From positions 64,914,001 through 64,978,000 of the forward strand of contig NC_059432.1 of assembly GCF_021028975.2 (NCBI RefSeq): 64,000 nt of DNA. The letters are read 5' to 3'. Of the stretch, positions 1,142 to 63,669 are shown in pieces. The notes under the pieces are model-generated. The model was not told where the DNA came from. It saw only the letters and a program-made list of their open reading frames with translations, and searched no databases. Position 1 is the stretch's first letter. The number at the start of each line of letters is the position of its first letter. Both the position numbers and the translations under genes were made by a program. Origin of the DNA: Sphaerodactylus townsendi. Lineage: Eukaryota.

Positions 1142-1351
1142 CTGGTCCGAATGGGAGGGAAGGGAAGGAAGGAAGGAGAATCAACTCTCCATGCAAGAGT
1201 TTGCCCTGTTTATAAACTAGACAAGAATGGGACTCCAGAATGCAATCAGCATTCCAGGAAGTCCTCAGGAAACAACCTGTATTCCGCAAACAGGTCAAAG
1301 TGGCCCTTTGAGTACATTTCTAGACAAAGAGGGGGAACAAAGGCTACATAT

Positions 1352-1604
1352 GCATTGTCGAAGGCTTTCTCGGACGGATTCAACTGGTTATGGTGGATTT
1401 TCTGGGCTGTGTGGCCGTGGTCTGGTAGATCTTGTTCCTAACATTTCGCCTGCATCTGTGGCTGGCATCTTTCAAGGTGTATCACAGTGTAACAGACTTC
1501 TCTCTGTGGTATACCTCTGAAGATGCCAGCCACAGATGCAGGCGAAACGTTAGGAACAAGATCTACCAGACCATGGCCTTACAGTCCGGAAAATCCATTA
1601 CAAC
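1352..1604 (-). mobile_element. Penelope-like (PLE) fold-back element with hammerhead motif
   Basis: ~110-bp inverted arms; CTGAAGA(1517)...GAAACGTT(1544); one-sided tail; direct repeat CAAAGGCTACATAT at 1338-1351 and 1605-1618. Confidence 0.85.
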
Positions 1605-1673
1605 CAAAGGCTACATATATTTTCCCAGGAAACAAAGCCCACCTCACCTCCCATACAAATTCATTTCTCTCAC

Positions 1674-1751
1674 CTCTCTGCGCAAGGATGACCAGAGGCT
1701 TGGGAGAAAATCCTTCAGCTCTTTCTGCCCATAGATTATGCAGGCAGCATT
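1674..1751 (-). CDS. MMS19: MMS19 coding exon 11
   Basis: NAACIIYGQKELKDFLPSLWSSLRRE; 78 nt. Confidence 0.97.
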
Positions 1752-1968
1752 CTGTAAGAAAAAGTTAGACGGGAAGGGGGTCAACAGCCAGTGAAGAGCT
1801 ACAGTGGCTGGCACAGACTGCAGACTTTGAATTACCAAGAAGGCTAAGCAGACACTGAAACAAGGGAAGGCAAAACCTGGATGCTTGGCTAAGAAAAGTT
1901 GCAGAAGCAAGATAACCTAATCCCTGACCCCAGTAATAGAGCTTGTTATGTTTCAGTACTGCTCTTAC

Positions 1969-2043
1969 CAGTGTCTGTAGGGAGTCCATCTTGGCACTTT
2001 GTACATCAGAATCCATTTTCTCAATGAGAAGTGGAAGCAGAAA
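1969..2043 (-). CDS. MMS19: MMS19 coding exon 10
   Basis: FLLPLLIEKMDSDVQSAKMDSLQTL; 75 nt. Confidence 0.97.
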
Positions 2044-2830
2044 CTAGGATGGGGGAGGAGATGGAAATTTCAGTGTACTCTGGGGTAAAATATATCCCAG
2101 AAGACCAGACACTTGCCCCACCCTAAGACAGACACCATATGCAACCTACAGTAAGAGGTATTGTCATAACTCTCAGATTTCACTGTAATTCACGGTGGGG
2201 AGGTGTGGGGGAGACATGTACCGACCCTCACAAAACACTTTCATGCAGTTTATGGAATGTTTAAAGAATATCAAATGGCTTTAAAAAGTGGTTTAAAAAA
2301 CATTAGTTGTACCCTCTGCCCAAAAAGTTGTAAGGTTTGATAGGTGCATTTTCAAGAGAGCTGACTCCAGTCAACAAAAGGGAAATAGCTCTGCAATACA
2401 CCTATTGCTAGCTGTTAATACATTAACAGTTTATAAAAATATCCAAGTTATTATAAAAACCTGGACCTCTTTTTGACAAATGTTGAACACAGTCCACAGA
2501 AACCAAATTATGAACATAACAACCTACACATTTTATTCCATGCTTTCTCCAAGAATCTCAGAATTAATGGTTTTCCCAACAGCCTTTTGTAGTAGGCTGA
2601 GTGAGAGTGACTGGCCCATGGTTACCCAGTGAGCTTCATGGTGGAGTGGGGATTTTCAGGGTGTAATCTTACCATTACACCATACTACCTCTATACTCCC
2701 TAGCTGCAAAGAAGTCAGCACAGCTAAAGGACAAGCTAAAGGTCAGCACAGCAGAAAGATTACTAGAGCAATCCCATAAGGCAATGGGACAGATGTGAAG
2801 AATCTCATCAATCCTACGTAACTGTTCTAC

Positions 2831-2917
2831 CTCAGCAAAAGCAGGGGTGGAGGTTAGCACTGCCCGCAGGCTGGCAATCAAGTCTTCTCTCTGGATTCCA
2901 TGAGGATCGTTTGGAGG
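2831..2917 (-). CDS. MMS19: MMS19 coding exon 9
   Basis: PPNDPHGIQREDLIASLRAVLTSTPAFAE; 87 nt. Confidence 0.97.
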
Positions 2918-3156: not shown

Positions 3157-3161
3157 CTCAC

Positions 3162-3443: not shown

Positions 3444-3740
3444 GGAGCAGCAGTGGCATAGTGGTTAAGAGAAGGTGCATACTAATCTGGAAGAACCGGG
3501 TTTGAATCCCCGCTCTACTGCCTGAGCTGTGGAGGCTTATCTGGGGAATTCAGATTAGCCTGTGCACTCCCACACACGCCAGCTGGGTGACCTTGGGCTA
3601 GTCACAGCTTTTCGGAGCTCTCTCAGCCCCACCCACCTCACAGGATGTTTGTTGTGAGGGGGGAAGGGCAAGGAGATTGTAAGCCCCTTTGAGTCTCCTA
3701 CAGGAGAGAAAGGTGGGATATAAATCCAAACGCTTCTTCT
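3444..3740 (+). mobile_element. tRNA-derived SINE (Squam3/Ther1-like)
   Basis: A box TGGCATAGTGG, B box GGTTTGAATCC, core GCTGGGTGACCTTGGGCTAGTCAC, (CTT)n tail; high similarity to the other copies. Confidence 0.85.
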
Positions 3741-6344: not shown

Positions 6345-7487
6345 CTGTGTTGGAGACAAACCATAATGAAAGATTTCATGGACTAGATATGAAAAATAAA
6401 AAATGAGCAGGGGACCCATAAGGACTCATGGGGGGTATTTCATTTCTTCTCGCCTGCTACTTTCTCTTTCCCTTCTCTAAAAGCCGTGATGGTATCTCCT
6501 CTTTTCCTACATCATTCCTTCCCACCACCCAGTCAAACTACCTTTATGTGTCCCAATCTTCAACTTTCCCTCTTTTTCTCTCCCAGCAGCCTCTCCCTGG
6601 GGAAACTCTGTTCGCTTCCAGTCACGAGGCCTGGTGTAGTTGCACAGTGGGGAGCCCACAGGGGCTCTCCTTCGTCACGGTGATTCTGTCTGGAACATTT
6701 TTATCCATTTTCTCCCTTCTGTCTTTCATCATCACAACAACTCTACGAAGTAGCTTAGGCTAAGAGAGAATGACTGCTTCAATGTCACCTGCAGTATAAT
6801 CCTATCAGAACACTTTACTAGGGCTCAGCCTGATTGAATAGACACAAGTACAGTTCTGACTAGATCGGCTTAGGATTGCTTTCCCAAAAAGCTTCATTCT
6901 GTGCATGTTTATTCAGAAGTGAGCCCACAAAGGTCAATGGGACTGCTTTCCAGATAAATAAAAAGGCATGATCTCACTAGCTACTCCCCAGGTGCTGCCT
7001 GCTCATGTGCCAAATAAGAGAGGGTGGGGAAGACCAGAAGCGGGCATCTCGCAGAGAGTCAGCAGAACAGAAACTGTGTGTTTTGTTCCACACAGTCTAA
7101 TGCAAATTCTCAACATCCCTCTCTCCAAAAAAGCTTGGCTGGAGAGCAGTCGCTTTCTCCTTCACTCATAAAGTTTAACAAATTGAACTGTGGCATCAGC
7201 CATATAACTAGCTCTACCAAGGGCATACAATACAATGCTCATACTCAGGCATTTCATTCATCCCTTTTGTTTTTGTGATTCCTCTTAGCCTTGTACACTG
7301 GGCTGGGGGAACATCAGTAGAGATGTAAGGATCCCCTCAATTTTGCTCCAAATTTTTGAAGTCTGTTATGATTTGGATTCCACTCGTCTTCCAACAAGAA
7401 AACAAATTTTCTGAAACCTGGTCATGGTTATCATACATGAAAAATATTTACTGCTTTTATAAATATATTCTAAAAATGTAAATAAAT

Positions 7488-7577
7488 AGCCACAGATGCA
7501 GGCGAAACGTCAGGAGAAAATGCTACTAGAACATGGCACCCCAGTGATTCCGGCCGTGAAAGCCTTCAACAATACAA
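7488..7577 (+). mobile_element. PLE pLTR 3' fragment
   Basis: GCCACAGATGCAGGCGAAACGTCAGG...GGCCGTGAAAGCCTTCAACAATAC, same family, single arm. Confidence 0.75.
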
Positions 7578-7812: not shown

Positions 7813-8348
7813 GGCCGTTTCCGCACGGCCCATTAACGACGGCCTGGGGGCGCTAAAAACGCCGCCCCCAGGCTGCCGTTCGCACAGGCGCCGCTGCTGC
7901 AACACAGCAGCGGCGACCTGACTCCGCTTCCCTCCCCCCAGGGCGGCCTCAGGCCGCCCTAAACAACAACCCTTTAAAGGGTTGTTGTTGGGGAGGAAGC
8001 GTCTTCCCGGCGGCGCGGTGCGAACCGCGCCACCGGGAAGATGTCTTGCGCCCCACTCACGATGTCCTTGTGTCGTGTCGCCTGCTGGCGTCGAGCCCAG
8101 CCACACTGTCCTCCGACCTCCAGGGGTCGGAGGGCAGCGTGGGCGGGGCTTCGACGCCCAGCAGGCGACAACGAGGACATCGTGAGTGGGGCGCAGAAGG
8201 GAGAAGAGGCGGCTCCGTGCGGAGCCGCCTGCCGTCTGTCGGCCTCTGCTTGGCCCGTTCGCATGCTTGCATGCGAACGGGCTTCCGCCCCCACGCCACC
8301 AGAACTCTTGGCGGCGTGGGGGCAAATGGATGCCGTGCGGAAACGGCC
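7813..8348. mobile_element. GC-rich non-autonomous DNA transposon (PIF/Harbinger-like MITE)
   Basis: Perfect 17-bp TIR GGCCGTTTCCGCACGGC; 3-bp TSD TGC; many internal hairpins; CpGs intact. Confidence 0.8.
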
Positions 8349-10387: not shown

Positions 10388-10590
10388 GGTAGGGCTATGG
10401 CTCAGTGGAAGAGCACCTGCTTTGCATGGGGAGAACTCCAGGTTCAATCCCTGGCATCTCCAGTTGAAGGATCTGAGAGTAGCTGATATGAAAGATGTTT
10501 CTGTGAAACCTTGGAGAGCCAATCAGAGTAAACAACATTGACCTGGACAGACCATTAGGTATGACTCAGAAAAAGGGAGGTTCATGTGCT
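10388..10590 (+). mobile_element. Second tRNA-derived SINE family; copies ~35030-35520 (interrupted), 57055-57210(-), 60625-60830(-)
   Basis: GGCTCAGTGGAAGAGCA A box, GGTTCAATCCC B box, LINE-like 3' end GACCTGGACAGACC..GACTCAG. Confidence 0.7.
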
Positions 10591-10686: not shown

Positions 10687-10967
10687 GAGAACCAGCATGG
10701 TATAGTGGTTAAGAGCAGGTGCACTCTAACCTGGAGAACTGGGTTTGATTCCCAGCTCAGCCATTTGAGCTGTGGAGGCTTATCTAGATTAGCTTGTGCA
10801 CTCCATGCCAGCTGGTGACCTTGGGCTAGTCACAACTCTTCAGAGCTCTCTCAGACCCACCTACCTCACAAGGTGTTTGTTGTGAGGGGGGAAGGGAAAG
10901 GAGTTTGTAAGCCTCTTTGTGTCTCCTTACAGGAGAGAAAGGGGGGATTTAAATCCAACTCTTCTTC
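10687..10967 (+). mobile_element. SINE (Squam3-like)
   Basis: Homologous to 3444-3740. Confidence 0.85.
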
Positions 10968-13898
10968 GTGCCCTTTAAGGCTGGAAACAGTGATATAGGA
11001 CTCTCCCAGCTGATTTCCTTGGCTATGAAGGGAGAAGACAGACAAGTGGGATAGTACTTACAGTGAAAGGGATGGAGGAAGCAATTCATGGCTATTTCTA
11101 AGGCGAGTCTAATAACAAGAGTAAGCTATGCAGGGACTTGAGGACTTCTAACTAATTTTTCTGCCGGGTCTCCAAAAATACTAGATCATTTTACCTGTGT
11201 GCCATGGTCTAATCAGGCATTCAAACAGCTAAGAACTGACAACTTCTTGAATGCGCCTTATTGATCACAGAAGTACAAAAGCTACAACTGCTTTATTTCC
11301 TAGGGCGTAGAAGCAGCTACAATATGCAGGTCACACCAAATTTCCACCTAGCTGCTTCCCTGAAGTCAGCACACAGAGGAAAGTGGCTAGCCAGATCATT
11401 ACTTACGTCACCTCTGAAACACAACCCATGCAGGCAGGCAAAAATGCATTTCAGATTGGTTTGCACTTTTTTATATCCTTTTGAAAAAAATGGGATATCC
11501 AGGAAACCCAAGGCAAGCAATGTCTCTCCTCCTTACATGACAACATTTTCATAATGATCTACTTTCCATTTATAGTGGTAAACTTATGGCCTTCCAATCG
11601 CCCAAAGCATGCTATTCACATCCATTTATTTACTTTTCACCTGAGCATAATTTATAGAAGTCGCTTTTTAAAATATTGTCAAATTAAGTATCGATGCCAA
11701 AAGTGAGTTTAATCACTGTAATATGGATTTGCAAAGCCATATTTTAAGTAGAGCAAAATTACAATTATTGAAATTGGGGGGAAAACCCCAAAATTGAAGG
11801 GAACAAACATACCCGCTGCAATAGAAGCATGCCATAAAAATCTAATCTTTGCTGAGAAATTACCGTTATCTACCTCATTCGAAGTGGGGAAACTATGAAG
11901 GGAAAAGGAAGGAAACTGAGAGAAAGTGGGAAGCAGCTTGCCACCTGAAAGGACAACTTGCGATATAAACAGGCAGAGGAGTGGCAGACGCACAGGCACA
12001 GTACAGAATCTCAACAGCTACCGTCATCCTGACACAACCAGGTGTTAAGGAACAAGAGGACCATCCTGAACAAACCACTTCTAACTCATTCTTATCACTG
12101 CCTTGCTCTCAAAAGCACAAGATCTGCAAGATATGTTTTCTTAGCACGTCTCTTGGAAACATGGCACTCCTGGTTGTAAAAGAACACATTTTCTGTACTT
12201 AAAGGTACTTTCTTTGGAGAGCTTCTATTTAAAAGGAAAGGCAGAAGAGACGTATCGACAGCACTCCATCACATCCCTTGCTACAGTACCTCCTTCTTTT
12301 CTTCTGTTCAGGGGCACAGCCTGCTAAATAGTTCAGAGGAATACAACTGGGATCAGAATATTCCTCAGTCAATTAGCAAAGCAGGTTGCCCCTGGACAGA
12401 AACACTGGGCAACAGAAGGGGCCTGAGGAGAAGGCAAAAAAATAATGCTTGCATGTTGAAAGAGCAGAAACGATGCATGGATCAAACAGGGCCAGTATCA
12501 GAATACCATAAGGTGGGATAACTGTCAGGGACCACTGCTGTCAATGGCCCCCCACATACTCTCTTGCTGGTGATCCACCACCCATGCTCCCTGCTTCTTG
12601 AACTGCCCAGTGCCACTGGGGAAGAGGCTGCAGGTAGCTATGAGCATGGGCAGTGAGAGGACTTGTGAGCAGACAAGGGAAGGAGTACGAGAAGGGGACT
12701 GGTGGTGGGTGGAGGTTGGGGAAGGGGGCACTGGGAACCAGCCCTAAGTAGACAGGAAAAGTAAATACCTGTTTGTACTGTTCCTTTTGTTTCTTCTCTA
12801 CAATTTTTTGTATGTGGATCCACATAGTATTTCAAACCAAAATAGTACTCTAATTTATTGAAGGGGAAAAGGCAAGACAGAGAAAAGCATTCAAATCACA
12901 TCCCATCCTTTCCTGCCTATGCCCCACTTAGAACAGAAACAAAGCCCTCCAGAAGTGTATGTCAGAGATCCACTGGCATCACTCCGTGCCAGTGTCAGGC
13001 TGGGATAATTTCAGCATGTCAGTGTAGAATGGAGTGGTATCAGGGGCTTTTCAGGGGCAAAGTGAATCAACTTCCTAAGCTTTTCCAGTCCCAACAGCAT
13101 CCCTAATGCCAGCATAAAATCATGGCACTGAAAACAATGCCCCTTCTTTAAAACATCTAACAGAGACCAAGGCTAATGAAAATGCTACTATCCTTCTCCC
13201 ACCTCACTTTCAAGTCCTCCTCCACCTTCAAATATCAGGATACCAACTAAGTCTGTCGTCAATCACAGACTTTCAATTAACTAAATAAACTCCAGCCAAA
13301 ATTCCCATAGCTCAAATGTTAGGGCATGTGGCGTGGGGTTACAGGATCATGGCAAGCATACCTAGAATATCCACAGGAGGGTTTTGGTGATAGGAAGGGC
13401 ACTTTGACAAAAAGGAAATACTGAGTACAACAGCCAGCATTGATGTAGAATATGTCTAACAATGGTGTTCCATCTTCGGACACAAACATTCAATGGAAGC
13501 CTCCACATTTCCTAGTGGTGATGCAAGGACAATGCAACTCACTCAGTTAAGCAAGGAAGGGCAGGCTGCCCTAAATTATAGCAACTAAAACTCTCCTGTT
13601 CCCCTGGACCTATTCTGTATATTGCCCAACCAATCCTCCTTTCCTGGATAGCTGCTAGCAGTGTGTACAGTGCAAACAGCCAAAGAGAGAACTTGTAAAA
13701 TATGCTGCTAACAGGCCTGTTGACAACCCCAGAGGCAAGTACCAACAAAGAGCAAGTGGGCTCCAAAGGTTGACAGCTTCCTCCTCTACCTTGAAAATCC
13801 CCATATAGTGGGACACAGTGGAACCATTCAGCCAACCTTTACACATTTGCAATGGAATCATGTCTGTTCTGTCTGCTGGGGCTGTGATTCTGCAAGCC

Positions 13899-18272: not shown

Positions 18273-19154
18273 TAAGTTCTTCAGTGAGAAGCAAGGATCA
18301 GTTTGAATACCTTTTACAATATGCAAATGGGTGTAACATGCATTCTTCAACAGGATAAGGGGTATTATTTCTAATATTTCCCTTGGAAGAAAGTCAAGAG
18401 AAAGGAATGTGTCAAGAGACTGCAACAATGATACATACCCAAATTCCCTTTTGGCATAGGGCTGCTACCAAGGATGGGCTGGAACCAAAAAAGTTAAAAG
18501 CAGCAAAGGGAAACCAATTTGGGCCCAGGTGTAATCTGAACAAGAAGCACTTGTGCTATGTACTTGTGCTTCTTTGTTCAGAATCAAAAACAGGGATGAA
18601 AATATATTATTGCTAAAGGGTGGTACAATGAGCATAAGATGACCAGAGAGACCTATTATTTTCTGTTCTTTACAACCCAAGCTTATGCAGAGATCAGCAC
18701 ACCTATATTTGCACAGAATCAGGCTGTGAGTACACTGAAAGTTTAAACTATGTCAGCACTGACTTTCAAAAAGTGCAACAGGAAAAGGGATTACATGGGG
18801 AAATCTGCACAGGACTGCCATCCATGAAAAGTCATGCCACAAGCTTGTGTACATGCCCCCCATTTGAGAGGGTTATATTTGGACATATATTTGTATTTTG
18901 CCTAGGATGGCCTTTACTTTAAATTTACAATGCTTTTTTTTTAATTGCATTGCTTGCCATATTACCATCTGAAGTTTTGGGTCTACAACCACTCCTATCA
19001 TTAAACAGCCCACCTGCAGGAATCAGAGGACAGGTTTTGCCAGTTAACACCCTAGAATGGCAGCTTCCACACCACTTCCTCTGCAACATATGCACAGGCA
19101 GATCTTTTTCTTTGCAAGCTATATGAGTGGCTCAGATATTTAATAGTGTATTAT

Positions 19155-19393
19155 TGTACTGTTGAAGGCTTTCAAAGCCAGAATAACTGACTATTATTTT
19201 CCAGGCTGTGTGGCCATGGTCTGGTAGTTTTTGATCCTAATGTTTCACTCGCATCTGTAGCTGACATCTTCAAAGGTATGTCACAAAACATATCTTACAT
19301 GCCTCTGAAGATGCCAGCTGTAGATGCAGGCAAAACATTAGGAGCAAAAATTACCAGACCATGGCCACACAACCTGGAATACCCACAACAGCA
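19155..19393 (-). mobile_element. PLE fold-back element, older copy
   Basis: Inverted arms homologous to 1352-1604; CTGAAGA at 19305; CpG-decayed GAAA. Confidence 0.8.
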
Positions 19394-19789
19394 GGCTGTA
19401 TTAGTGTTGCTTGTTACTGTTTTGTGACTTAATGGCATTAAATGTACATTTACAAAATAAGTTTTAAAAATCCCCAAATTCCAGAAGTGGAAGATCCATC
19501 AAAGAGCAGAGAATTAGGGGAAAAACAAGAATCAAGGGAGAAACAACAGAGATTGTGGAGGCAAAGAAGTAACAGCGAGGGGCATAATTGACACTGGGAA
19601 AAAATAACTAAGAAAAATAGGGCAGATTTTGAAGGGGAAGGTTATATTTCGCATTCTGTATTTCGAACGCTGATCGGCAGGAAGACGAATGCCCCCCTTG
19701 GTTAAAGCAAATGCTTTACACAGAAGGTAGGGTTTGATTATGGATATGAAGGAAGAGTTGATATTTTAAAAGGGCAGAGGCCTTCCACT

Positions 19790-39683: not shown

Positions 39684-41751
39684 ATAACAAGCCTTTATTG
39701 GCATAAAATAAACATACAAAACAAGCATACAAAACCTGCCCGCCATTGCTCACAGTCATAGACACTGGTACTAAAATATATACATGGTCCTTCTGTAACT
39801 ATAGGACATTCTTTCAGCTAAGTTGACTCACTTAAACGTCATCGGATACTGACAGAAGCTAGAAAAATTACTGCTGGCTATATGTGGTCATAATACATAG
39901 ACATTGATTGGTATTCATCTAGACTTACGTCTATTATCGTTAGCAGAAATTTTGCTACATTCTCGCACACTGTGGGATCCATGTTGTTCAAAAGCATAGG
40001 TATCTTAAGAACATCAGTTAGATTGTTATACAGAAATGGGATAAGTGCAGATTGCGACATTCTGATTTTTGCAAACCTTACACAATGAAAGAGGGTATGA
40101 TCGAGTGTCTCCACCTGACCCATGTTGCATGGACATAGCCTCCTCTGTTTATCAATTTGTTGATATCTGCCATAGAGCAGCATAGAAGGCATTAGATTGA
40201 ATCTGGCCAGTGTTAAGGCTCTTCTTAATTTAGGGTTGGTGATCCAATGTAAATAATTGGCCATGTGTCCTTGCTCAATTGGAATAAGCAGGGTCAGGGG
40301 GGAACACGTTTTCCTCGCAGCCGTTATCATATCCCGATACTCTTGTTCTAATAGCTTAGTTTTCAAGCAGCTATATGCTTCTGATAGGGAAAGAGGGCCT
40401 AACGACTCTAGTGAAAAGCCAAGAGCGTTGATTTTTCCCTCAACTAGTTTCAGCCACCTAGAATTTGCATAGTCGGAAAGCATGAGGTGTAGCAAACTGG
40501 AGTGATCCTGCAAATAGTGGATATGTAGCCAGTATCTGACAGTTCTCAGCCAGGCCATTGTGGCATATGATATTTGCCCGAGTTCTAAACATAGTGCTGC
40601 ATATGAAGCACAATTTGGTAAGCCCATAATTTTATGGAAGAAACGGGACTGGGCTGTGTTTATATTTTTGTTTATAGCTCCGATCCAAATTGGTGCTCCA
40701 TAGAGGAGCTGAGAGCCGCATTTAGCATTGAACACCTTCAATGCGGATGGTATATACTGGTGGCCCACAGTGAAAAAGAAACGCTGAATTGCTAGGGCAC
40801 TGTTGTTAGCTGCAGCAAGTGCTAATTTCCTATGTACTGCCCAATTAAGGTTGCTGGTAAGAGTTATGCCCAAATATTTGAACTGGTTAACTTGTTCTAT
40901 GGGTCTGTTATTGATGGTCCATGTATGACTAGGGGGTCTTCTAGCGAAGGCCATTATTTTGGTTTTTTCATAATTAATTACCAGTTCGTTCCTCTTACAA
41001 TATTCAGCACAGCAATTTAAGAGACGAGTGAGGCCAACTTTAGTGTGGGAAAGAAGAACGGTGTCGTCAGCATAAAGTAGCGCGGGCACGTGTTTAGCAC
41101 TTAGTTTGGGAACATGCCCATTGGCCTTCTGGAGGGTTGGCACTAGATCACTAAGGAATATATTGAACAAAGTGGGGGCCAATGTACAGCCTTGTTTGAC
41201 CCCTCTGGTTGTGATGATATTTTCTGTGAGTGGTCCTTTTATTGCGGCTCTTATTCTACAGCTAGTGCAAGTGTATAGCTGTTTTATGAGAAACAGTAGT
41301 CTGGGGTCGATATGTAACGCCATCAATTTTCTCCACAGTAGGGCTCTAGATATGGAGTCAAATGCCCCTTTTAAATCCAGGAAATCTGCAAAAAGTTTAC
41401 GGTTATTATGAATTATACTTTTGTTAGCTAAGTGTGCTAAAACTGTTACATGATCCAGTGTTGATTTATTTTTAGTGAATCCAATTTGCTCCGGTCCTAT
41501 TACTTCTGCTTGCTTGACCCAATCTTCCACTCTCCTAAGGAGTAGTTTTGCATATAGTTTGCCAATTACAGATAATAGGCTTATAGGGCGATAGTTTGAA
41601 GGATTAGTAATATCACCCTTTTTGTAGATTGGGACAACTATAGACGCCAGCCACATCTTTGGGATGTGGCCTGTGTTATTTACATGGGTAAATAAGGAAG
41701 CCAGAGTTGTAGCCCACCACTCGGGTGAGGATTTAAGTATTTCTGGTATTA
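39684..41751 (-). mobile_element. 5'-truncated non-LTR retrotransposon (RTE-X-like) with uninterrupted RT reading frame
   Basis: Open frame to stop at 39878 with NYRPISLL, DLKGAFDS, GVKQGCTLAPTLF, YADD, FKYLG and C-terminal RLCPC..ETLDHTLFHC; 3' end GCCAATAAAGGCTTGTTAT; perfect 15-bp TSD TTGGGGTCTCCAGTA at 39669-39683 and 41752-41766. Confidence 0.92.
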
Positions 41752-44700: not shown

Positions 44701-45532
44701 ATTAATCTGAAAATAAATCACTATGTAAAGATGAAAAGTACCAAGATGTGACCAGTTTGGAGACTATGCAGGGCCTGTCTGAATATCTGGCATTCCAGTG
44801 TGCCTGGCATTTCAAGTGGAACTTTTTGGTATATGTTCACCTCTTACTTTGGAACAGAGTATTTCTAACAGTTTCAAACCTACCCCAGCAATTATGCTCA
44901 TAATTTTGGCTGTGTTTGCCACATCATTATACCTGTTGGCAAGTGGCAACCCCTGCATTAGTGTTCTGAGTAACGGTTCTGTCCTACGTCTCAGCAGTGG
45001 GTGTTAATGACTAGATCTGAGAATAATGTTGCTGGTCCTGAGACCATCTTGAAAGCAGCAAAACTGGATCAGCCGCAAACAAATGTCAAAGTTTCTACAT
45101 GCTTGAGGGGCTCCTAAGATGTGCAGAAAAATATGAGGTCATTAAGTTACAAATTAACTAATTTTTTTTTTAATCCCTCAAAAAGCAGTCTGATAAGGAC
45201 TGGATGTGCTCCAGCATATTTTGAGATAGTGGAGAGCCACATCAAGGGGAAAAGTGGGGAGGATAAATTTGCCTGATCAAGTCCCGGGGAACTCAGAGAA
45301 TTTGGGAGGGGGAAATTGGGTTATCTTTCCAGACTATCCTCTCGTCCACCCAGCAATTTTTGTATCCCCCTCCAGCTTGTTTAATCTGAAATGGGATTCA
45401 CTTTTTGTATAATAGCATCAAAGTTGATCCATGTTTGATTTTCTGTTCTGAATTTCCCCAAACTCTCCTCTCCTATGCTGCATTCCACTTAATAGATCTG
45501 TACATTATTGCCTCTTTTCTTCAGGGGCCTTC

Positions 45533-45757
45533 TGTTGCTGGTAGAAAGTGCCCTCAAGCTGCAGGTGACTTATGGCAACCCTGTGTGGTTTTTAAGGCAG
45601 GAGACATTCAGAGGTGGTTTGCCACAGCCTGCCTCTGCCTTGCTACCCCGGACTTCCTTGGTGGTCTCCCATGATCCAAATACTCATCAGAGCTTGCCCT
45701 GCTTAGCTTCTGAGATCTGATGAAATCAGGCACGCCTGGGCTATCCAGGGCAGGGAC
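45533..45757 (-). mobile_element. 5S rRNA-derived SINE (5S-Sauria-like)
   Basis: Minus strand GCCTGATTTCATCAGATCTCAGAAGCTAAGCAGGG..GGGAGACC resembles 5S rRNA; followed by GGCAAACCACCTC..GTTGCCATAAGTC tail. Confidence 0.8.
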
Positions 45758-46832
45758 CATGTATTTTATTGCATTTCGTTCTTTTTTCTATTCAAAGTAC
45801 AGGTTTTTATCAGGAGTTTAGTAAATGTTCCGCCTTTTCTTGTGGTTTGTGTACTTTTCCTATCAGCTTTATATCTGGAGTAAATACAATACACATTCTT
45901 TATTGATTCATTCAAGTCATTAAGGGAGAAGTTACTCTGTTCTTGAAAGATTTTTTTCACTCATTTATGTAGCTCTTGATTTGTTTTGGTTGTTCCTGAG
46001 CTATCCTGTGTGTGTAGTTTTCGAACTGCACATAAATTTCTAAACAAACTAGGAAATATTTAGATTACAACAATAAAGATAAGGCTGAGAATGCTACGTT
46101 TTTACCGCGGAAAGAGGGAAGGAAATCAGCATCTTCAGAGCAAGGGACTGAGGAGGGGCATGGTGAGAAATTTTAAAAGCATTATTATAAAAATAGGGAA
46201 CAGCTGGTTTCTTAGCAACAGGAATAAGATACTTCTAAACTGTAGTAAATCTGACTATAGAACCAGCTGATTTGAAATTATATAGAATTTCTTTTTATGA
46301 GATGTTTACAAAGAAGTGTTGAGTAAGTGTCTGTCAGAGACTATTTTGGTTTGGAGAGTCCTGCCTTTAGCAAAGCAGTAAGAGTGAGAGAGTTACACAG
46401 GAATCAGTGATTAGGAAACACGCCCGGCTGAACTGACTTCAACCTCTATGCTTCCTGCTCTCCCAGAGTATTTGCCTTCCAGGAGCATAACTTCTCTTAG
46501 CCTTGCAAATTGTTGCCGTGCACCAGGTTGCTGCCTCATGGCTTATTTCTTGGCTAATACGCTGAGCTATAAATACCGTCTAGGGTGGAAAACTCTCTTA
46601 AGGCTCTGACCAAAGAGCTGGGTGGGGGTGGAAGAAAGCTGTGGCCACTGGGTATGTGCAGTCCACAACAAGAACCAGGGAAGCATGGAGGAGGAGTGGA
46701 AGTGCCCCTTGCCAGAGCCGGGTTGTGACAAGATGAGGCAGCAGTCCCTGTAAATGCAAAAGAAGCTGGGTCCAGCAGGTGAGGGGGTTCTGTTTTTGTT
46801 GCTTCATTTGAAGTCTGTTTCTACTGCTGCAG

Positions 46833-47060
46833 GTCGCAATGAACCTCTAAAGAAGGAGCGCCCCAAGTGGAAGAGTGATTACCCAATGACAGATGGCCAG
46901 CTGCGAAGCAAGAGGGATGAGTTCTGGGACACAGCACCGGCCTTCGAAGGCCGCAAGGAGATCTGGGATGCCCTCAAAGCTGCCGCCTATGCTGTGGAAG
47001 CAAACGACCATGGGCTAGCTCAGGCCATTATCGATGGTGCTGGTGTTACCCTGCCACATG
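46833..47060 (+). CDS. UBTD1: UBTD1 exon 2
   Basis: [52 protein letters not shown]...LPHG; 228 nt. Confidence 0.97.
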
Positions 47061-48095
47061 GTATGTTGGGTGAAACAAAGTTGAGTCTTTCTACCCCTGT
47101 CTCCAGTTCCCAGCAGAAACACTGTCTTATGTTGTGGATTTTTTTTATGGCTACACCATCCTCTTCTGCTGCAGTAATCAAACAATATATGTACAAAAAT
47201 GCAATTTATGTGTGTAACAAATGAATGTTTGCCACTGTGAATATTATAGAGGTGCCAAAGGTGATAATGGTAGGATTGGGCATGCCTTCTTACCATGTGT
47301 ACAAAATTCACGTAATGGGCTTAAGTCTTGAACATCCAGAACTATTCAAATCTTTTGTGGGGCTACACACATTTTTTTCTTGGAACAAAGACCACTGGGA
47401 ACTGGGCAGACAGCAAGAGGTTCATACGTGCTTGTCAGTATCCAAAGGAAAACTAAGTATGGTGAGCTTCGTTCTATCCTTGCAGTGTGGGATGAACCAT
47501 GCTGAAAAGTTTTATAGTGGCTGTTCTGAGCATGGGTTGAACGGAACTTCCAAATATGACAGAACAAGGCTGTTCAGCCTCTTCATGTTGCCCCCCAGAC
47601 TCCAACTGCAGGGTAACATGACTTTGAGAAGTTCCCAGGAACATGAGGGGGGCACATATGGGGAACTTTCTTTTCTAGTCCTAGGAAACCAGTCTAGACA
47701 TTTTTGCACTCACTTCATGCTGAGAGGAGACAATTGGAATGGGAGATTGAACAGTCTCATATTCATTCATTCAAAAAGAAGGGTAAGCGGAACAGGGGGA
47801 GTCATTCAGTGGGGTAACCGGTGGACTTCCCCTAACTTAGGGGGCATCCAAAGGCTGGGAGCCGGGGATGGTCTGGGGCTGCATGATAAGATAGGGGAAT
47901 ATCAGAGAAAAAGAGTTGGAAGGAATTTAGGGCACGTGGTTAGTGAGGTCATCATGAAAGAGACCAAGATTTGGAGAGAAAAATGAAAAGTTTATATTTT
48001 GTAGAATTTAACTGTGTCTTAAATAGGCCTGTGGAAAAGCCTACTTGTTTCCCAAGCCTCTCATGCCCTCTACTGGTTTCTTAACTCTCCTGCAG

Positions 48096-48481
48096 GTTCC
48101 CTCACTGAGTGCTATGATGAATTGGGGAACCGGTACCAGCTCCCTGTTTATTGCTTGGCTCCGCCTGTCAACCTGATTATGGAGAGGAGCGAGGAGGAGG
48201 GCGTGGAGCCCCCTGAGCCAGCACCCAACACCCGGCGTGAGTTCCCTCTCAAAGTGCGCCTCTCAACCGGCAAGGACTTGCGCCTGAGTGCCAGCATGAC
48301 TGACACTATTGGGCAGCTCAAAAAGCAGCTCTTTGCCCAGGAGGCACTGGAGCCTTCCTGGCAGCGTTGGTTTTTTTCTGGGAAGCTCCTGACAGACCGG
48401 ACCCGCCTGCAGGAAACCAAAATCCAGAAGGACTTTGTCATTCAAGTAATCATCAATCAGCCGCCTGCACCAAGGAACTGA
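48096..48481 (+). CDS. UBTD1: UBTD1 exon 3 (C-terminal ubiquitin-like domain, stop)
   Basis: [20 protein letters not shown]...[40 protein letters not shown]; total CDS 684 nt = 227 aa. Confidence 0.97.
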
Positions 48482-49205
48482 ATTGGAGGTGGCTGGCACA
48501 GGGCCCGTTTTGTGGACCAGAGGCTGAGCTGGAGTCCATGAGCACGAGGCTGTTCTTGTGGCTGGGGAAAGCAAATGGTGTCCTCTGAGCCGTGGCTGGA
48601 AGGTTTTATAGTGGCCCTTGGAGAATGGCAAGTGCTCACTTGCTGCAGGGCACAGATAAGGGGTAGCAAACAGCATAGGTGGGTGGTTGTGAAGGTGGAT
48701 TCTTCCCATGCTTTGCCTCTCTTGACCCTTAGGACCATTTTTTTACCACCCCATACCTCAAAGAATTGGATTTGTTTCCTTTATCCCCCCTTTCTAGGCT
48801 GGTATTGAAACACATGCCTTTCTCCTCTTCTTCTGGGCTTATAAGCCTATGTGAAAGACTGTGGGTTTAGTCCCTTCAGGGACCAAGCATAGATTTTGCT
48901 GCTTGGGCATCAAGAAGTTTTTCTAGGGAGCTTGAGACCAAAGCACCACCCACAAAAAGGCCCGTGCTGGGTACAAGACCAGAATACCTTGTCAAATACT
49001 GTGCTGTATCTGGTTCCCAATTTCTTGTCCCAATATCTAGTCCAGTGAATGAGGCCTCAGTAATGCTGAGACTGGTCCTATTTGCACAGTCTCCTGTGAC
49101 GAGCCAATGGGACAGTTGTGTATTCTGGATATATAGGCAGCCCTTCAGCTAGATGGGGGAAATGGAGGATTGTTCCTGTATGTATAGGTCTCAGTGTAAT
49201 TTATC

Positions 49206-49211
49206 AATAAA
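49206..49211 (+). terminator. Likely UBTD1 polyadenylation signal
   Basis: AATAAA about 725 nt after the stop, followed by pyrimidine/GT-rich sequence. Confidence 0.6.
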
Positions 49212-49368
49212 ACCTTTTCCAACTAGCCCTGAGCCTGTCCTGTTGCCCTGATTCAGCCTGACCTTGGTTTTGTTTCTTAAGAAAGTTTTACACTATTTCC
49301 TTAATTCTGGATAGCATTCAAATGCTTAATTGGAATGAGCAGGCTTGTGTTCGGAAAAACCTAGCCCT

Positions 49369-50699
49369 TGTGACAAAGGCACCTCGTGCTGCTAACGGGG
49401 AAGTGGGCAATTTGTAAGAGAAGAGTTAGGTAGGAACATGAAATTGCTGTGAAATGCAAAACTTTGGTTTGGGGTGGAGCTAGAAATTATTTAGAAATAA
49501 GGGGAGGGGGCTTATAAAAGAGGATCAGTGGATAAGAAGTAAGCTTTCTTACATTCATTGATCTTCTGTATAAATAATTGCTCACTTCCAGCTTCATAGC
49601 TCTGCTGAAGAAGAGAAAATGAGGCAGAAAGACAGCTTTAGCAGCAGAGGAATTGTTAAAGGAATTAAACACAATAACCTTCTGAGATGGACACCCCCCA
49701 ACCCTCCTTTCTTATCATCTTCAGGCAGGGGACCACAGACTGACTTATCCTGTCAGTTTCCCCCCCATCTTTTCCCTTTCAGGGACTGAGGTGCTTCAGA
49801 AAATGGTAGTGTTTGGTTGAAAGCACTTCCCCTCAGCCATATAACACACCCAGAAGGCAAAGAATACCCATTGACTTTTATTCTTTTTCAGGTACATCCC
49901 TCACTAAGACACTATAAAATAAATACTTGAGGCAGATTTAAAACTTAAACAGATTAAAGATTTATCAACAGATAGAGGAGATGGGAAAGGAGGAATAGTA
50001 ATTTGGAGATGGATTTTGATGAGGCAAATAAGGCAGGAGGCAGTATATATATACACACACACACTGTACACAAAAGGTTGGCATAAAGGTTCAGAGATGT
50101 TTCACAGATCGGACAGTTCCTTTAACTTTACAGGTAGTTCTGGCTTTTGACTTTTGCACATACAGGGTCCTAACACTGGCTTGGTACTTATACACAGTAC
50201 CCTCACACATTCCACAGTTAGGAATGACCCTCAAAATATGAACTCTCTACTGAGGTCAACCAAAGCAATACCCAATACCCCAGACTCACTGGTATACAGG
50301 GATTCTTCTCTCACTAGAAGAAATTCTTACCCCAGTTTATTATGGTCCCACAGCTTAGCCCTTCAATAAACCCTTTCATGAGTATATATTTGCTTTCACC
50401 CAGCACTCAGGCTGATAACAGAAGCAGTTACACACTTTGACTGACTACTTCCTTCAGTTAAAGCAGACAGCACTTAACAGCAGGAACGCTCCAGACCATG
50501 AAGACTCACAGATTCTTCTGACAGGGAGTTAACCTCCTTTGCATCATACAGTTACTTAGTCAATCAGAGTGCAGGAGGCCACAGCCAATCAGGTGGCTTT
50601 TCTGTTCCTAGCCTTTCAGCCTCACTCTGACTGTAAACAGTAAGTTGTTTTAGACAAAAATACACTTTTAAAAATCATATTTCCTTGCAGTCCATCATA
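49369..50699 (-). mobile_element. Probable 3' LTR of the Gypsy remnant
   Basis: On the minus strand a purine tract AAAGGGTGAG precedes TATGATGG; candidate end GTCACA at 49369. Left boundary is tentative. Confidence 0.55.
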
Positions 50700-50975
50700 T
50701 GTCTCACCCTTTGAAATCATTGCAGTAGGTCTGGCTTTTCATGCCTCCTCTTAGCAACAAGTGAGGTCTCCAATAACATTTACCCTTTGCGCATTGTTAT
50801 CTTAAACACATTAACACATTGGGCATTACCTTATATACTTTTTGCATTTACCTTAACATTCTTATAATTCAAAATACATCAGTAGATACACAGCACTTTT
50901 ACTCAATGCTCACCACATTACAGGATTACCTTAAATACTAACTCAGGTAAGTTTATCAGTTCACGTTTACAGTTT

Positions 50976-51700
50976 TTACCTTCCGTTTGTCCTAGAAAGT
51001 GCATCTGCGATTACATTGTCCTTGCCTTTGATGTGCATCACATCAAAAGCTGTAATCCTGCAACTGCAGACCCCTTCTGATCAGTTTGCTGCTTGTGCAC
51101 TTTACCTGGTTCAGACATTTCAAAGGCGAAGGATTAGTACACAGAGTACATTTCCTTCCCCAAAAGGTAAGGTTTTAATTTACCCACCGCCCATACTATT
51201 GCCAGATGCTTGATGTCTGAGAGATGTCGCTCTCTTATCTGCCAGTTTACAGCTCAGATAGAGAACAGGAAGTTGAGCTCCATCCTCTCCCTCCTTGGCT
51301 TAGCATGGCTCCGATGCCAATGTTAGAGGCATCTGTGAACAACATAAAGGGGTTCTCAAAATCAGGTGCCCTTAAAACTTGTACCATAGTAAGTACTTAC
51401 TGAAATGTGTCAAAAGCAGTCTGGCACTCTGGTGCCCACAACACTTTATTTGGTACAGCTTTTTTTGTTAGCTCACATAAGGGTGCTGTGATGGTGCTAA
51501 ACTCAGGTATATACTTCCGGTCGTACCCAACTCCCCGATGAATGCTCTTATTTGCTTTTTTGTGGTGGGCCAGGGCCATCCTGAATTGCTTGCACCCCTG
51601 TCCAGTCTGGTTATATTTGCCTTCCAGTATGTGTCCCAGAAATTTCACCTGGTGCATACCTATTTGACACTTGGAGGCTTTCACTGTTAGCTCTCTTTCC
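50976..51700 (-). mobile_element. Ty3/Gypsy pol remnant (RT thumb/connection + RNase H), frameshifted
   Basis: TVKASKCQ..VKFLGH, GYDRKYIPEFSTITAPLCELTKK, FTDASNIGIGAML, LAIVWAVGKLKPYL, HIKGKDNVIADALSRTNGR*. Confidence 0.9.
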
Positions 51701-53935: not shown

Positions 53936-53939
<4 letters not shown>

Positions 53940-53980: not shown

Positions 53981-53984
<4 letters not shown>

Positions 53985-55920: not shown

Positions 55921-56261
55921 CCTTCCCTCCCCTCCCCTTTCCCTAGGGCTATGCAAATTAGTATGGGAATTAAGACGGTCTCTCTATGGGTAAAATAAAA
56001 TAAATTATCTAGTCAGCTATGTTATTAAATTTGGTATTGCGATAAGTAGAACACATTGTAGGAAGTAAACAAAACAAAAAATAAGCCCTTTGATCAGCAT
56101 GTCCTTGGCCATAACTGGAGAGCAAAACAAACAGGGATTTGCAATTACAGGGTGAAGAGACAAGAATCCGTTAATAAGCCAGAGAATTCTTCACACATCC
56201 CTTTCCCCTTCTCTCCCCTGCTTTTCCTTGCTCTTTATCCCCTGCCTTCTGTCCTCTACAG

Positions 56262-56402
56262 GGCCAGGAGAGGGTCCGGAAGAGTTCTGTGGACCTAAGG
56301 CGAGAGATCATTGAAGTTGGTGGCACTCAGTATCTCTTTGAGCTTCGCAAAAAACCCAAAAAGAAAGAAGAGAAGAAACCAGAGCCTGAGCCGGAGGAGA
56401 TT
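56262..56402 (+). CDS. ANKRD2: ANKRD2 exon 3
   Basis: GQERVRKSSVDLRREIIEVGGTQYLFELRKKPKKKEEKKPEPEPEEI; basic NLS-like and PEST-like region. Confidence 0.95.
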
Positions 56403-56722
56403 GTATGGAAAATTACATTGTCGGGGTTGGGAGGGTGGAGTTCTAGGGAAACAGTAGTGAGAGCCCAGAATTCATCTGAAAGTGCATTTAGGAAGCTGAC
56501 TGAAGCAAGACAGCAAGGAACCAGCTTGTTCTCCAAAGGTGGAGGCCTCTAGATGCATGCTATTCCTATGAAGGGCAATGTCTGCCACAAGTGCTTAGAA
56601 CTCTGGGAAGGGGTTGGGAATAGTGTGTCAGGGTTTGAGGTTTTCCTCTTAACTTTTTAAAAAAATTGCTATGCTTTTTGAGCCTTTAGAACACTCATTG
56701 AACCATCAATGCTTCCCTGCAG

Positions 56723-60349: not shown

Positions 60350-60905
60350 GGCAGAAGGAGAGGGGACGGGGAAGCCAGCTGGAACTCCAAGCAAGGATGA
60401 TATTGGACGCCAAGAGGCTGCCTGTTGTTACTACCCAATTAAAAAAAGAAGTAAAATCTAATGTGGGTTCACCCACTATGTGAGAAGCAGAAATGCAATA
60501 GCTGGAAAATTCCCCATCACCATATTATCACCAGCTACACACGTGAATTTTGTGTTGTCATGCAGCTGTATATAACAGAAGCATGCTGTCAAGCAGAAAA
60601 GTTCCAGTCTTGTATCCATGGAATAAAATGAAGCTGCCTTACACCAACCCAGACATCTGGTCAGTTAAAGCCAGTGATGTTTGCTCTGATTGGCAGGAGC
60701 TCTTGATGGGCTCAGGTAAAGGTCTTTCACACCACCTCCTAGCCAATTATTTTACCTGCAGATGCCAAGGATTGAACCTGGGGCCAGTAGTATGAAAACT
60801 AGATAATCTGCCACTGAGCCACCACCCTTCCAGTGAGCTGAGTGATAGATAACACTCATGTGTCCCAGATGCATGATAAAAAAACAAGCCCACAAGACTT
60901 TACAG

Positions 60906-61375
60906 CAGTGATGGCGAACCTTTTTGAGACCGAATGCCCAAATTGCAACCTAAACTGCACTTACTTATCACAAAGTGCCAACCCGGCAATTTAACCTGAA
61001 TGCTGAGGTTTTAGTTTAGAAAAAACCCGGTTGGCTCCCTCTTCCTCCGCCCCACCCGCTCGAGCAGGGGGCAGCCTGCTCTAGCCTGCAGCAAGTCCCG
61101 CACACACCGCTCTTTGCCTCTCTAGCATCTCTGCCTCCTCTGCACCCCCTCCCTCGGGAAGCAGCACAGGCACCAGGCCCGCCAGCCGAGTCCTCCCTGC
61201 TCACCACGGTGCACACACGTTGTGCTCAGTGGCCCATGCCAGCCTAGATGTGTGTGTGTGTGTCAGGGTGTGTGTGTGATTTTCCGCCCCCCACGTGATG
61301 AACTCTGTGCGCGTGCCCACAGAGAGGGCTCCGAGTGCCACCTCTGACACCCGTGCCATAGGTTCGCCATCACTG
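60906..61375. mobile_element. hAT (Charlie-group) non-autonomous transposon
   Basis: 16-bp TIR CAGTGATGGCGAACCT / AGGTTCGCCATCACTG; 8-bp TSD CTTTACAG / CCTTACAG. Confidence 0.88.
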
Positions 61376-61879
61376 CCTTACAGTATGAAACTGTTTGTAG
61401 TATTCTGGGTCAGTGCTGTAAAAGCAAAGACTCCAGGCGTCTTCGATGAGTCTCCAGGTAACCTTCCACCAATGCAAACTGATCTGTAACTTAACCTCAG
61501 GCAGGCCTGATTGGTATCCTGTCCTTCACTCCATGCATGGTCCCTCTGGCACTGCTCATAGTGGGCTCCTTCTGCTTAGATTGTCCGAGCTACCCGCTTG
61601 AGGTACCCCTGCAACATTCACCCAAACCAGACCGTTATTGAATCTTTGTTGGTTGCTCTGGCTGGTGGCAGCTTCCCAGTGGCTCAGGAAAAGAACCTTC
61701 CACATCACCTTCTATCTACCTTGCCCTTTTGGATCTTCTGCATGCTAGGCAGGTGCAGGCATGGGTAAAATATGGTGCTCCTCTTTGGCGTTTTTCGAGC
61801 TTGAAAAAGCCAAAAAAAAAAAAAAGCAGAGGGATCGTTAAGTCCTGTCCACTGCATACCAATAGGAGACTAAAGTCTA

Positions 61880-62530
61880 TTGCACACAACGGGCTTGCTT
61901 CCAAGCAAGGAGGCCCGGCAGAGGCAAAGTTGCCCGTACTCGAGAGAGGCCCTCTATCTCGCTCGCAGCTGGAAAGAAAGTAAATCACATCCTGGACAGG
62001 ACTTGCCCCTCGCCCTTTTGCAATTCTTGGACCCCGCCTCCTGGGGACGGCCTCAGCACAGGCCAGGCTGTGGGACAAGGTCTCCCGAAGGCAACCCTGG
62101 CAGTTGCCGAGCGAGGGTCGAGACGATGCAAGTCCCCCGGATCCCGCCCCTTCGTTGGTCAAGAAGCCTTTGCAGGCGCCTCAGTGGGCCTGGGATAAGG
62201 GGCGCTCCTAGGAGGTTCGGCGCTGTGGCTGGGGGAAGCGGTGGGCGGCTGGACCTGCGCGGCATCTACCCACCCCTGACGACCCCCTTCACCTCGCAAG
62301 GAGAGGTGGATTATGTCCGTTTGGAGGAGAACGTGCGTCTTTACGATAAGGTTCCCTTCCGAGGTAAGATCGGCAGGCAGGGCTGGTGGGGTCCTTCGAG
62401 AAGGCCAATGCAGCAGAAGACCCGGGAGCCTTTCGTTGCTTGCAACAGACTCATGGGGCTACTCCTCGGGAATTAAAACAGGAACCCCCGGGAACTACTC
62501 CCGCCCCCCCCCCCCGACCGCCGTCACACA
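61880..62530. promoter_or_regulatory. CpG-rich HOGA1 promoter / exon 1 region
   Basis: CpG enrichment; GC box CCCCGCC (~62032); HNF4-like AGGCAAAGTT (~61922). Confidence 0.55.
62126..62363 (+). CDS. HOGA1: HOGA1 exon 1 (4-hydroxy-2-oxoglutarate aldolase; mitochondrial transit peptide and start of DHDPS-like domain)
   Basis: Arg-rich, acid-free presequence MQVPRIPPLRWSRSLCRRL..., then LRGIYPPLTTPFTSQGEVDYVRLEENVRLYDKVPFR-G; donor G|GTAAGA. Confidence 0.93.
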
Positions 62531-62842
62531 CCTTTGCAAGTGCACAACTATGCTCGCTGTAAACTCTCTCTTGAAAGTCAGTCGGTCCAGACCACTGTTC
62601 ATTCCTCTGCCTGGCGCTCTCCTATAAAACACAACCTTGACAAGTAGCTCCAAGTCTTTCTAAGGTCCATGTCTGGAAGAAATTCAACAGACACTGTTTT
62701 GTTTCACCTTTTGAATTCTGCCTGTCCTGCTGCCGGGACCAGCACAAGAGCCTCTGTTGAGAACAGGTGGCAATTATTGTCTGAATACACCTAAGGCATC
62801 TGTCAGCCTAGGGAGGACAAACACAGCATCTAATAGAATAAT

Positions 62843-63101
62843 GGTTCTGGTGGGTTTTCTGGGCTGTGTGGCCGTGGTCTGGTAGATCTAGTTTCGCCTG
62901 CATCTGTGGCTGGCATCTTCAGAGGTGTATCACAGAGAAAAATCTGTGTGAACAGACTTCCCTCTGTGATACACCTCTGAAGATGCCAGCCACAGATGCA
63001 GGCGAAACATTAGGAACAAGATCTACCAGACCACAGCCACACAGCCCGGAAAACCCACCAGAACCAGTTGAATCCGCCTGTGAAAGCCTTCAACAATACA
63101 T
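62843..63101 (+). mobile_element. PLE fold-back element with hammerhead motif
   Basis: Inverted arms; CTGAAGA(62977)...GAAAC(63004); TSD TAATAGAATAAT at 62831-62842 and 63102-63113. Confidence 0.87.
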
Positions 63102-63669
63102 TAATAGAATAATCTTTAGATGCAGTGTTGCAGTTTCAATTACAGCTGTGGCTTTAAAAGCTAGAAAAAGGGAACTTTGCTGTGTTGAATCTTGCAACTG
63201 GATTCTTTCCAACAGACAGAATGCTGAACTAGCAACTGAACTGTCTTCAAAGATACCTTGCCTGCCTGCCTGCCTGGACTTTGGGCTCATTTTCTGCTCT
63301 GCAGGAGATGTACAGTTAGGGGGAGGAGCCTGCCCCCAAATAATGCCCTTCTCGTTCTCATCTGTCCCCTCCTAAAATATCCTTGGTCGTGCCTTCTCCA
63401 TATTTGGTTCCCAACTTTCCTTGACACTGTTCCTTTCTTCAATAACAGTTGTGCACAGATCGAGTAGCACTATTTCTCTTCCAGCTATTGAGGATAGGGG
63501 TGCAGCCACACACTGGGAGACAGGAGTACCATGGCTGCACGACTGAGCAACTGATATAGCTATCTTGCATTGAGCTGCTTTTCTGGCACTGTGGCTGTAC
63601 CAGTTCTGGTGACTCAGTATCACAACAGGGACTTTAGAGCGCACAAGAACGACATCTGTTTTTTTGCAG

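Follow-up and report, generated by a model that had tools for sequence, protein, structure and literature searches.

Fold-back insertions in a Sphaerodactylus townsendi sequence as probable terminal stubs of a Poseidon-type Penelope-like element

A stretch of 64,000 nucleotides from Sphaerodactylus townsendi (NCBI RefSeq assembly GCF_021028975.2, contig NC_059432.1, positions 64,914,001 to 64,978,000; hereafter the window) contains four short insertions that fold back on themselves as two inverted arms and carry, intact or decayed, a hammerhead ribozyme and the start of a Penelope-like element (PLE). Do these insertions represent a non-autonomous, retrozyme-like family that is propagated as such, as the first-pass annotation of this sequence had proposed, or are they the remnants of ordinary PLE insertions cut unusually short? 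Our analysis points to the second answer: the copies are probably independent, dead-on-arrival stubs of a Poseidon-type PLE, each built from two primed cDNAs. Their architecture matches the published PLE insertion that consists of an inverted truncated pseudo-long terminal repeat (pLTR), a tail and a target-site duplication (TSD). The family is real and very abundant, but its class is already known, and it displays the standard Penelope insertion signature at its shortest.

The four fold-backs (c1 to c4) lie where they were first annotated and measure 239-261 bp. A model made from the window's own arms (nhmmer) recovered their eight arms and one lone arm, with no further match up to an E value of 10. 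An adjacent inverted, 5'-truncated copy, a feature of PLE insertions, is present at four of the five loci. The fifth is a tailed partial arm of another subfamily (7487-7575 by the model, delimited as 7488-7577 on the plus strand) that is 5'-truncated within hammerhead stem II and has a 24-nt internal gap; neither an inverted partner nor a TSD was found for it. Altogether the family occurs about once per 13-16 kb of the window, exclusively as terminal stubs without the body of the open reading frame (ORF).

Each fold-back combines one tailed and one tail-less arm, and the two point in opposite directions (signed positions are counted from the ATG). The tailed arm of c1 lies on the minus strand (1352-1487; ATG at 1468, end at +117, tail 1352-1384) and is separated by a central spacer (1488-1503, plus strand, in the sense of the tail-less arm) from the tail-less arm on the plus strand (1504-1604; ATG at 1523, end at +82). 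In c3 the order is reversed, with the tail-less arm on the minus strand (38601-38703; end at +84, start codon decayed), a spacer that reads in the direction of the tailed arm and has the opposite polarity to c1 (38704-38720, plus strand), and the tailed arm on the plus strand (38721-38861; ATG at 38740, tail 38824-38861). The tail-less arm of c4 is likewise on the minus strand (62843-62947; ATG at 62916, gap-corrected end at about +83) and its tailed arm on the plus strand (62948-63101; tail 63067-63101). The fold-back c2 (19158-19396), tailed on the minus strand (ATG at 19267) and tail-less on the plus strand (ATG at 19311), is older or belongs to another subfamily: it differs from the arms of the other three copies by 21-30%, whereas those diverge from one another by 6-16%. 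The inverted arms are 86% complementary in c1 (1385-1487/1504-1606) and c2 (19199-19281/19297-19379) and 90% in c3 (38600-38709/38715-38824), and pairing in c4 is interrupted by a 9-nt deletion. The one-sided tail noted earlier was recovered at 33-38 nt in c1, c3 and c4.

Three exact TSDs had been annotated and are upheld: 14 bp around c1 (1338-1351 and 1605-1618, with up to 2 nt per junction equally assignable to the element), 12 bp around c3 (38589-38600 and 38862-38873) and 12 bp around c4 (62831-62842 and 63102-63113). We found a fourth around c2, of 11 bp with one mismatch between its copies (19147-19157 and 19397-19407). By comparison, exact repeats of at least 12 letters occurred in 2 of 3000 random site pairs spaced 255 nt apart.

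The reading frame within the arms bears out the Penelope origin proposed at first: an arm combines the hammerhead with the beginning of a Poseidon-type PLE ORF homologous to an Anolis reverse transcriptase (RT) protein. The frame starts with an ATG at the base of hammerhead stem II and runs for 28 codons in tail-less and about 40 codons in tailed arms. The earlier statement that the copies have no ORF therefore holds for a full ORF but not for its beginning, since every arm retains the first 28-40 codons. Codons 1-40 of the c4 stub (62983-63101, plus strand) align without gaps to residues 1-40 of P0047, with 19 of 40 identical (pairwise E 5e-10). This Anolis carolinensis protein of 836 aa has a Pfam RVT_1 domain and, read by eye near residue 700, a GIY-YIG motif for which there was no Pfam match. 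Its N-terminus resembles, also by eye, the template ORF of the Anolis element PAc printed in PMC11167929, with the ATG and the cut site positioned as in the window arm. This homology, together with the literature on PAc and PLE insertion, supports the earlier suggestion that an RT/GIY-YIG protein of a PLE mobilised the copies.

Homologues were reached stepwise. Peptides from the window alone had matched none of 175 candidates in an earlier protein search. A profile search of 1.84 billion protein representatives gave 10 matches, and an alignment widened with six of these gave 43 among 2785 candidates. One protein from another organism, P0042, reads in translation from an inverted arm through a sense arm into a long ORF, continuing beyond the tail into a longer frame; as a query it returned seven long proteins among 687 candidates, with P0047 at the top. 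Its junction is the same as in the window copies, here ahead of a longer element. Among 44 homologous proteins (46 minus two repetitive ones), 26 diverge after position 40, nine end, seven stop at positions 25-30 and two continue; the underlying search missed P0047 and is biased against long proteins, and this tally was not used to judge how rare full elements are. Searching the window with PLE proteins (tblastn) revealed no PLE RT region. In the Anolis UniRef entry P0036 ("transmembrane protein 126A"), the first 38 residues are the PLE ORF start and end at the tail; the entry is either a misannotation or an exonised stub.

Short, high-copy insertions with inverted arms and TSDs could also be miniature inverted-repeat transposable elements (MITEs), i.e., non-autonomous DNA transposons whose arms are terminal inverted repeats. 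We give this explanation practically no credence, as TSD length varies from 11 to 14 bp instead of being fixed, the 33-38-nt overhang at one end prevents the ends from being inverted repeats, and each arm is the start of a retroelement ORF; both the asymmetry of the ends and the homology contradict it.

The outer ends of the arms are constant. Gap-corrected, they fall at +82 to +86 or at +115 to +119. We compared the c4 tailed arm and its flank with three contig sets and one RNA run (four of 23 listed runs, among which no RNA run was given for the c3 stretch); 48,814, 51,607 and 36,215 contigs and 7,382 RNA reads were placed on it. All three contig sets have loose ends at 63066 (+84) and at 63100-63102 (+118 to +120), as seen in the 24 of 984 rows listed. 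Beyond these ends the sequence is AT-rich and heterogeneous (agreement 0.37-0.39), as expected of insertion boundaries at many loci, and depth past the tail end falls more than 20-fold. Summed arm depth is about 10^5 times the flank depth, a figure that is not a copy number, although its order agrees with four to five loci per 64 kb. According to PMC11167929, the PAc protein cuts and extends both strands of its target, favours AT-rich DNA and begins reverse transcription at ORF positions +111-118; the same paper places the genomic tail between two RT start sites. The end at +84 would then be the second PAc start site, as the tail length suggests. Near-constant size had been taken as a sign of non-autonomy, but the constant outer ends are no proof of it: the two published start sites explain them and mark ordinary PLE insertions too. 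At the c4 locus itself, the flank contig ends inside the element in X1 and X5, whereas in X8 it departs at 63109 and continues for 314 letters, which suggests an empty site in this more distant organism. Most reads of RNA run X21, which has loose ends at 62974, 63008, 63015 and 63058, stem from another subfamily that more closely resembles the Anolis element and the lone arm at 7488; 293 reads exit at 63058 into sequence that resembles a 5' splice site.

Does the ribozyme drive the spread of these copies? The first-pass annotation had assigned a hammerhead, intact or decayed, to each arm. A motif scan confirmed the minimal type I form with a palindromic stem III, the features of which match those described in PMC4209133, but found the complete layout of CUGANGA, stem II, GAAA and NUH in only three of eight arms (1517, 38734 and 62977, all on the plus strand). 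The last of these, part of the c4 hammerhead at 62974-63014, has a C-A mismatch in stem III, leaving two intact (1514-1554 in c1 and 38731-38771 in c3). The core is decayed in the tailed arm of c1 and the tail-less arm of c3, both cores of c2 are broken, and the tail-less arm of c4 lost its cleavage site in the 9-nt deletion. The catalytic G12 is read as A in about 22% of the depth in contig set X1, a CpG-type decay. An Rfam scan (E ≤ 5) yielded no hammerhead match; its microRNA (miRNA)-hairpin matches on the fold-backs, all under gathering scores, mirror the hairpin shape. An exact 26-nt core pattern had no match in metagenome and viral contigs.

Whether intact cores could fold depends on their context. 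In the isolated 56-nt motif, stem II pairs with a probability of 0.90-0.96 and stem I forms weakly, at about 0.2. Within a whole copy the 110-bp duplex prevails (c3: -195 kcal/mol, z -22), forcing the ribozyme fold costs 64-68 kcal/mol in an equilibrium calculation, and the pairing probability of stem II drops to 1e-26 or lower. The hammerhead in a transcript of the whole copy is thus predicted to be locked in the duplex. The pair within one element lies on opposite strands, giving one sense copy per strand; such antiparallel pairs 100-700 bp apart are already recorded in PMC4209133, where minimal PLE hammerheads are described as weakly active. For PAc, PMC11167929 reports that ribozyme cleavage requires the protein and that ribozyme mutants insert unaffected in vitro. 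We infer that the hammerhead is a passenger with no role in the spread of these copies.

These data bear directly on the possibility that one or several pre-formed hairpin masters are copied as units, in the manner of retrozymes, through ribozyme-processed or circular RNA. Such masters would be in keeping with the near-constant size, with the 16-17-nt spacer shared by c1 and c3, and with head-to-tail arm joints in the family (63066 back to 62974), as tandem forms could exist elsewhere. However, antiparallel hammerheads leave a single sense copy in a transcript that is predicted to be fully duplexed, only two of eight are intact, and ribozyme mutants of PAc insert normally in vitro (PMC11167929). 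RNA reads showed no pile-up of starts or ends, a result obtained from 7,382 reads covering about 6% of an unstranded 100-nt run from a related species, in which circles may escape. The polarity of the spacer moreover flips relative to the tail, and no arm-specific signature appeared in the four copies. Masters of this kind are therefore largely refuted for the four copies and very improbable as an explanation. The label "retrozyme-like" likewise lacks support, given that the hammerheads run antiparallel, have mostly decayed and are predicted to be trapped in duplex.

The centres of the copies are more informative about how the arms were joined. Three forms of junction occur in the four copies. 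Compared in forward orientation, the spacers of c1 and c3 agree at 13 of 17 columns (score 8, vs. 0 when reversed), but the tail lies on the left in c1 and on the right in c3. Neither one fixed master nor the snap-back of a lone cDNA begun at +119 would let the polarity of spacer and tail vary, and the flip speaks against both. It is allowed by two cDNAs that anneal at microhomology, as in the twin priming of L1 elements, and equally by self-priming with later resolution. By eye, the c1 and c3 junctions fall on a 5-nt complementarity (CACAG/CTGTG) between native upstream sequence and arm, and that of c4 on one of 3 nt; the centres thus likely sit on microhomologies of 3-5 nt. The native upstream sequence is taken from a loose-letter consensus upstream of 62951, whose final 10-18 letters are the same in all four runs (agreement 0.51-0.65). 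Varied centres, microhomologies and the polarity flip all argue against one master hairpin.

Neither arm-specific diagnostic bases nor a shared internal junction were seen in the four copies or in the 15 of 148 joint rows listed, a small sample from contigs that break in hairpins. The eight opposite-strand joints among those listed are all at different places, each supported by at most six contigs per run. Two of these eight (63010 and 63013) and a listed join to 63012 adjoin the predicted ribozyme cut at 63011/63012; these few rows may mark cDNAs made from cleaved RNA. The family also contains head-to-tail joins of arms, i.e., partial tandems (63066 to 62974, 63058 to 62972 and 63069 to 62962), and longer tandem arrays of this kind could be retrozyme-like.

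Self-priming is the published alternative for the origin of the inversion: a short palindrome in an antisense template would let the cDNA prime itself, and an endonuclease would then resolve the product, leaving the tail at either end (PMC3846280, PMC8557442). Palindromes are frequent at inverted PLE junctions (PMC3846280), and the freedom of the tail to remain at either end (PMC8557442) fits the swap between c1 and c3. Private variants common to both arms of a copy, which also speak for an independent origin of each copy, agree with self-priming too: nine shared variants lie outside CpG sites, of which seven link the arms within a copy, one is common to corresponding arms of different copies and one marks a junction. 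Yet the protein of PAc, given sense RNA in vitro, extends both target strands and starts at the tail boundaries (PMC11167929), and this accounts for the two outer ends with no need of a resolution step. Self-priming is accordingly doubtful in our view, and we retain two primed cDNAs as the probable origin.

The inner ends raise a different possibility. Upstream of the ATG, every one of the eight arms breaks off at a distance of 17-38 nt, and their ends span about 22 nt. If the template were a short non-autonomous, SINE (short interspersed nuclear element)-like RNA of 150-180 nt that carries the hammerhead and both RT start sites, ends just upstream of the hammerhead on its 5' side, and is inserted head-to-head in trans by a Poseidon protein using two starts at some 10^5 loci, constant size would reflect the template and not truncation. 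The clustering of the breakpoints at -17 to -38 in eight of eight arms fits such a template, as does the huge abundance (36,215-51,607 contigs per run, an arm depth about 10^5 times that of the flank that gives no copy number, and the more than 20-fold drop past the tail). The use of pLTRs in trans has also been published, as have PLE derivatives that are putatively non-autonomous (PMC8557442, PMC3846280). On the other hand, the consensus upstream of 62951 is common to four runs and reaches about 20-30 nt further, indicating that longer upstream sequence exists; more strongly truncated arms occur (joints at 63004-63065 and the lone arm at 7488); and extreme 5' truncation is typical of PLEs (PMC8557442, PMC8969392). 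We regard the short template as unlikely. Were it real, PLE integration would have a minimal substrate supplied by nature, twin-start priming could be read out across a whole genome, and a minority of cDNAs would end at the ribozyme cut.

The explanation by independent stubs leads to the following scheme. In a single insertion event, the RT/GIY-YIG protein of the parent element would place head-to-head pieces of the terminal repeat between TSDs. Staggered nicks 11-14 bp apart would each prime one cDNA, that of the tailed arm starting at the +117-119 site and that of the tail-less arm at about +84. Both would halt 17-38 nt upstream of the ATG, anneal through 3-5 nt of complementarity in native upstream sequence and be filled in, and the resulting stub is predicted to be inactive.

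Several observations weigh against this scheme. The inner ends of the eight arms cluster more tightly than random 5' truncation would suggest, and a stall or annealing site at that position is presumed. The microhomologies were compared by eye using a loose-end consensus of low agreement (0.51-0.65). Five of the seven within-copy variants come from c2, and gene conversion between arms could give the same pattern. Contigs assembled from short words break inside high-copy hairpins, which could hide a common symmetric junction and makes the joint test weak. The match of +84 to the second PAc start site is deduced from the tail length. The window holds no full-length element bearing exactly this terminal repeat, and the link to the ORF goes through homologues at 43-48% identity.

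The literature has yet to settle how PLEs come by their inverted repeats and tails (PMC8557442, PMC11167929). Because this family is so abundant, has clean TSDs and has a close relative that was reconstituted in vitro, two cDNAs and self-priming could be separated by junction statistics alone. In practical terms, intronic read-through of the copies would yield long double-stranded RNA, and repeat annotation could mistake the copies for MITEs or miRNA genes. A literature search listed no description of this squamate fold-back family or of twin priming by PLEs, and PMC6050309, PMC5753468 and PMC7561263 contributed nothing on structure; Repbase and Dfam were outside this search and may already hold the family.

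The remaining features of the window are largely those of other repeats and of host genes. An uninterrupted frame of 654 aa (39878-41842, minus strand) matches Pfam RVT_1 (E 5e-39) but had no tblastn match to PLE proteins, and is therefore probably a young long interspersed nuclear element (LINE) of another clade. Two structures are unrelated to the fold-back family: a separate MITE-like hairpin (32359-32486) whose arms (52 bp, 90%) enclose an AT-rich loop of 24 nt, and a GC-rich segment (7950-8300) that contains an inverted repeat (about 40 bp, near 8060-8200). A SINE-like family of about 300 bp occurs at 3444-3740, 10692-10976, 31874-32089, 35162-35458 and 37244-37540, with two copies 95% alike. 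A 5S rRNA-like match (45637-45755, minus strand; 37.1 bits, slightly below the cut-off) and a tRNA-like match (10391-10462, plus strand; 29.3 bits) are probably SINE heads or pseudogenes. Host exons on the plus strand (46754-48481, 56178-56552 and approximately 62300-62400) include Pfam ubiquitin-binding and ubiquitin domains. We take the ubiquitin-domain gene to be UBTD1-like, and other host frames presumably resemble ANKRD2 and HOGA1; on this assignment c3 and c4 would be intronic.

Among known systems, the nearest relative is Poseidon_Ac (PAc), a Penelope/Poseidon-clade PLE of Anolis carolinensis described in PMC11167929, with P0047 as its protein relative. In both, the hammerhead overlaps the start codon, the ATG lies at stem II and cleavage falls at +29; they also share colinear first 40 codons, RT start sites that bound the tail, and AT-rich targets. 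The window family differs as a distinct subfamily (48% identity over 40 aa), in the cleavage triplet of c1 and c3 (GUU instead of GUC), and in that the window holds terminal stubs only. The hammerheads share with the minimal type I ribozymes of metazoan PLEs (PMC4209133) the extra base between positions 9 and 10.1, the G10.1-C11.1 pair, a palindromic loopless helix III and opposite-strand pairs 100-700 bp apart, but helix I is only 3 bp here.

Non-LTR retrozymes, tandem repeats with a hammerhead per unit and a circular RNA (PMC7229834; bioRxiv 10.64898/2026.07.22.740005), resemble the copies in being short, lacking a full ORF, carrying a type I hammerhead related to pLTRs, and probably depending on a PLE protein. 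They are arranged head-to-tail with a same-strand ribozyme in each unit, whereas all four copies here are head-to-head with mostly dead ribozymes, and no tandem with at least two complete same-strand hammerheads occurs among them. The canonical insertion unit of endonuclease-containing (EN+) PLEs offers the closer parallel. PMC3846280 describes a pLTR with an adjacent inverted pLTR, a 31-bp tail that extends the ORF start, TSDs of 8-10 bp and junction palindromes; PMC8557442 and PMC8969392 present the pLTR/inverted pLTR layout as a general PLE pattern, the tail is optional and 30-40 bp long (PMC3846280, PMC8557442), and putative non-autonomous derivatives are mentioned in PMC8557442. The window copies have the same head-to-head arms, one-sided tail with ORF codons, TSD and short palindrome or overlap at the junction, and differ in that both sides are cut to the last 100-155 nt, leaving the whole insertion a hairpin with no ORF between its arms. 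The copies thus display the testable features of a PLE insertion and lack the retrozyme features that were tested, namely tandem layout and, by prediction, ribozyme folding.

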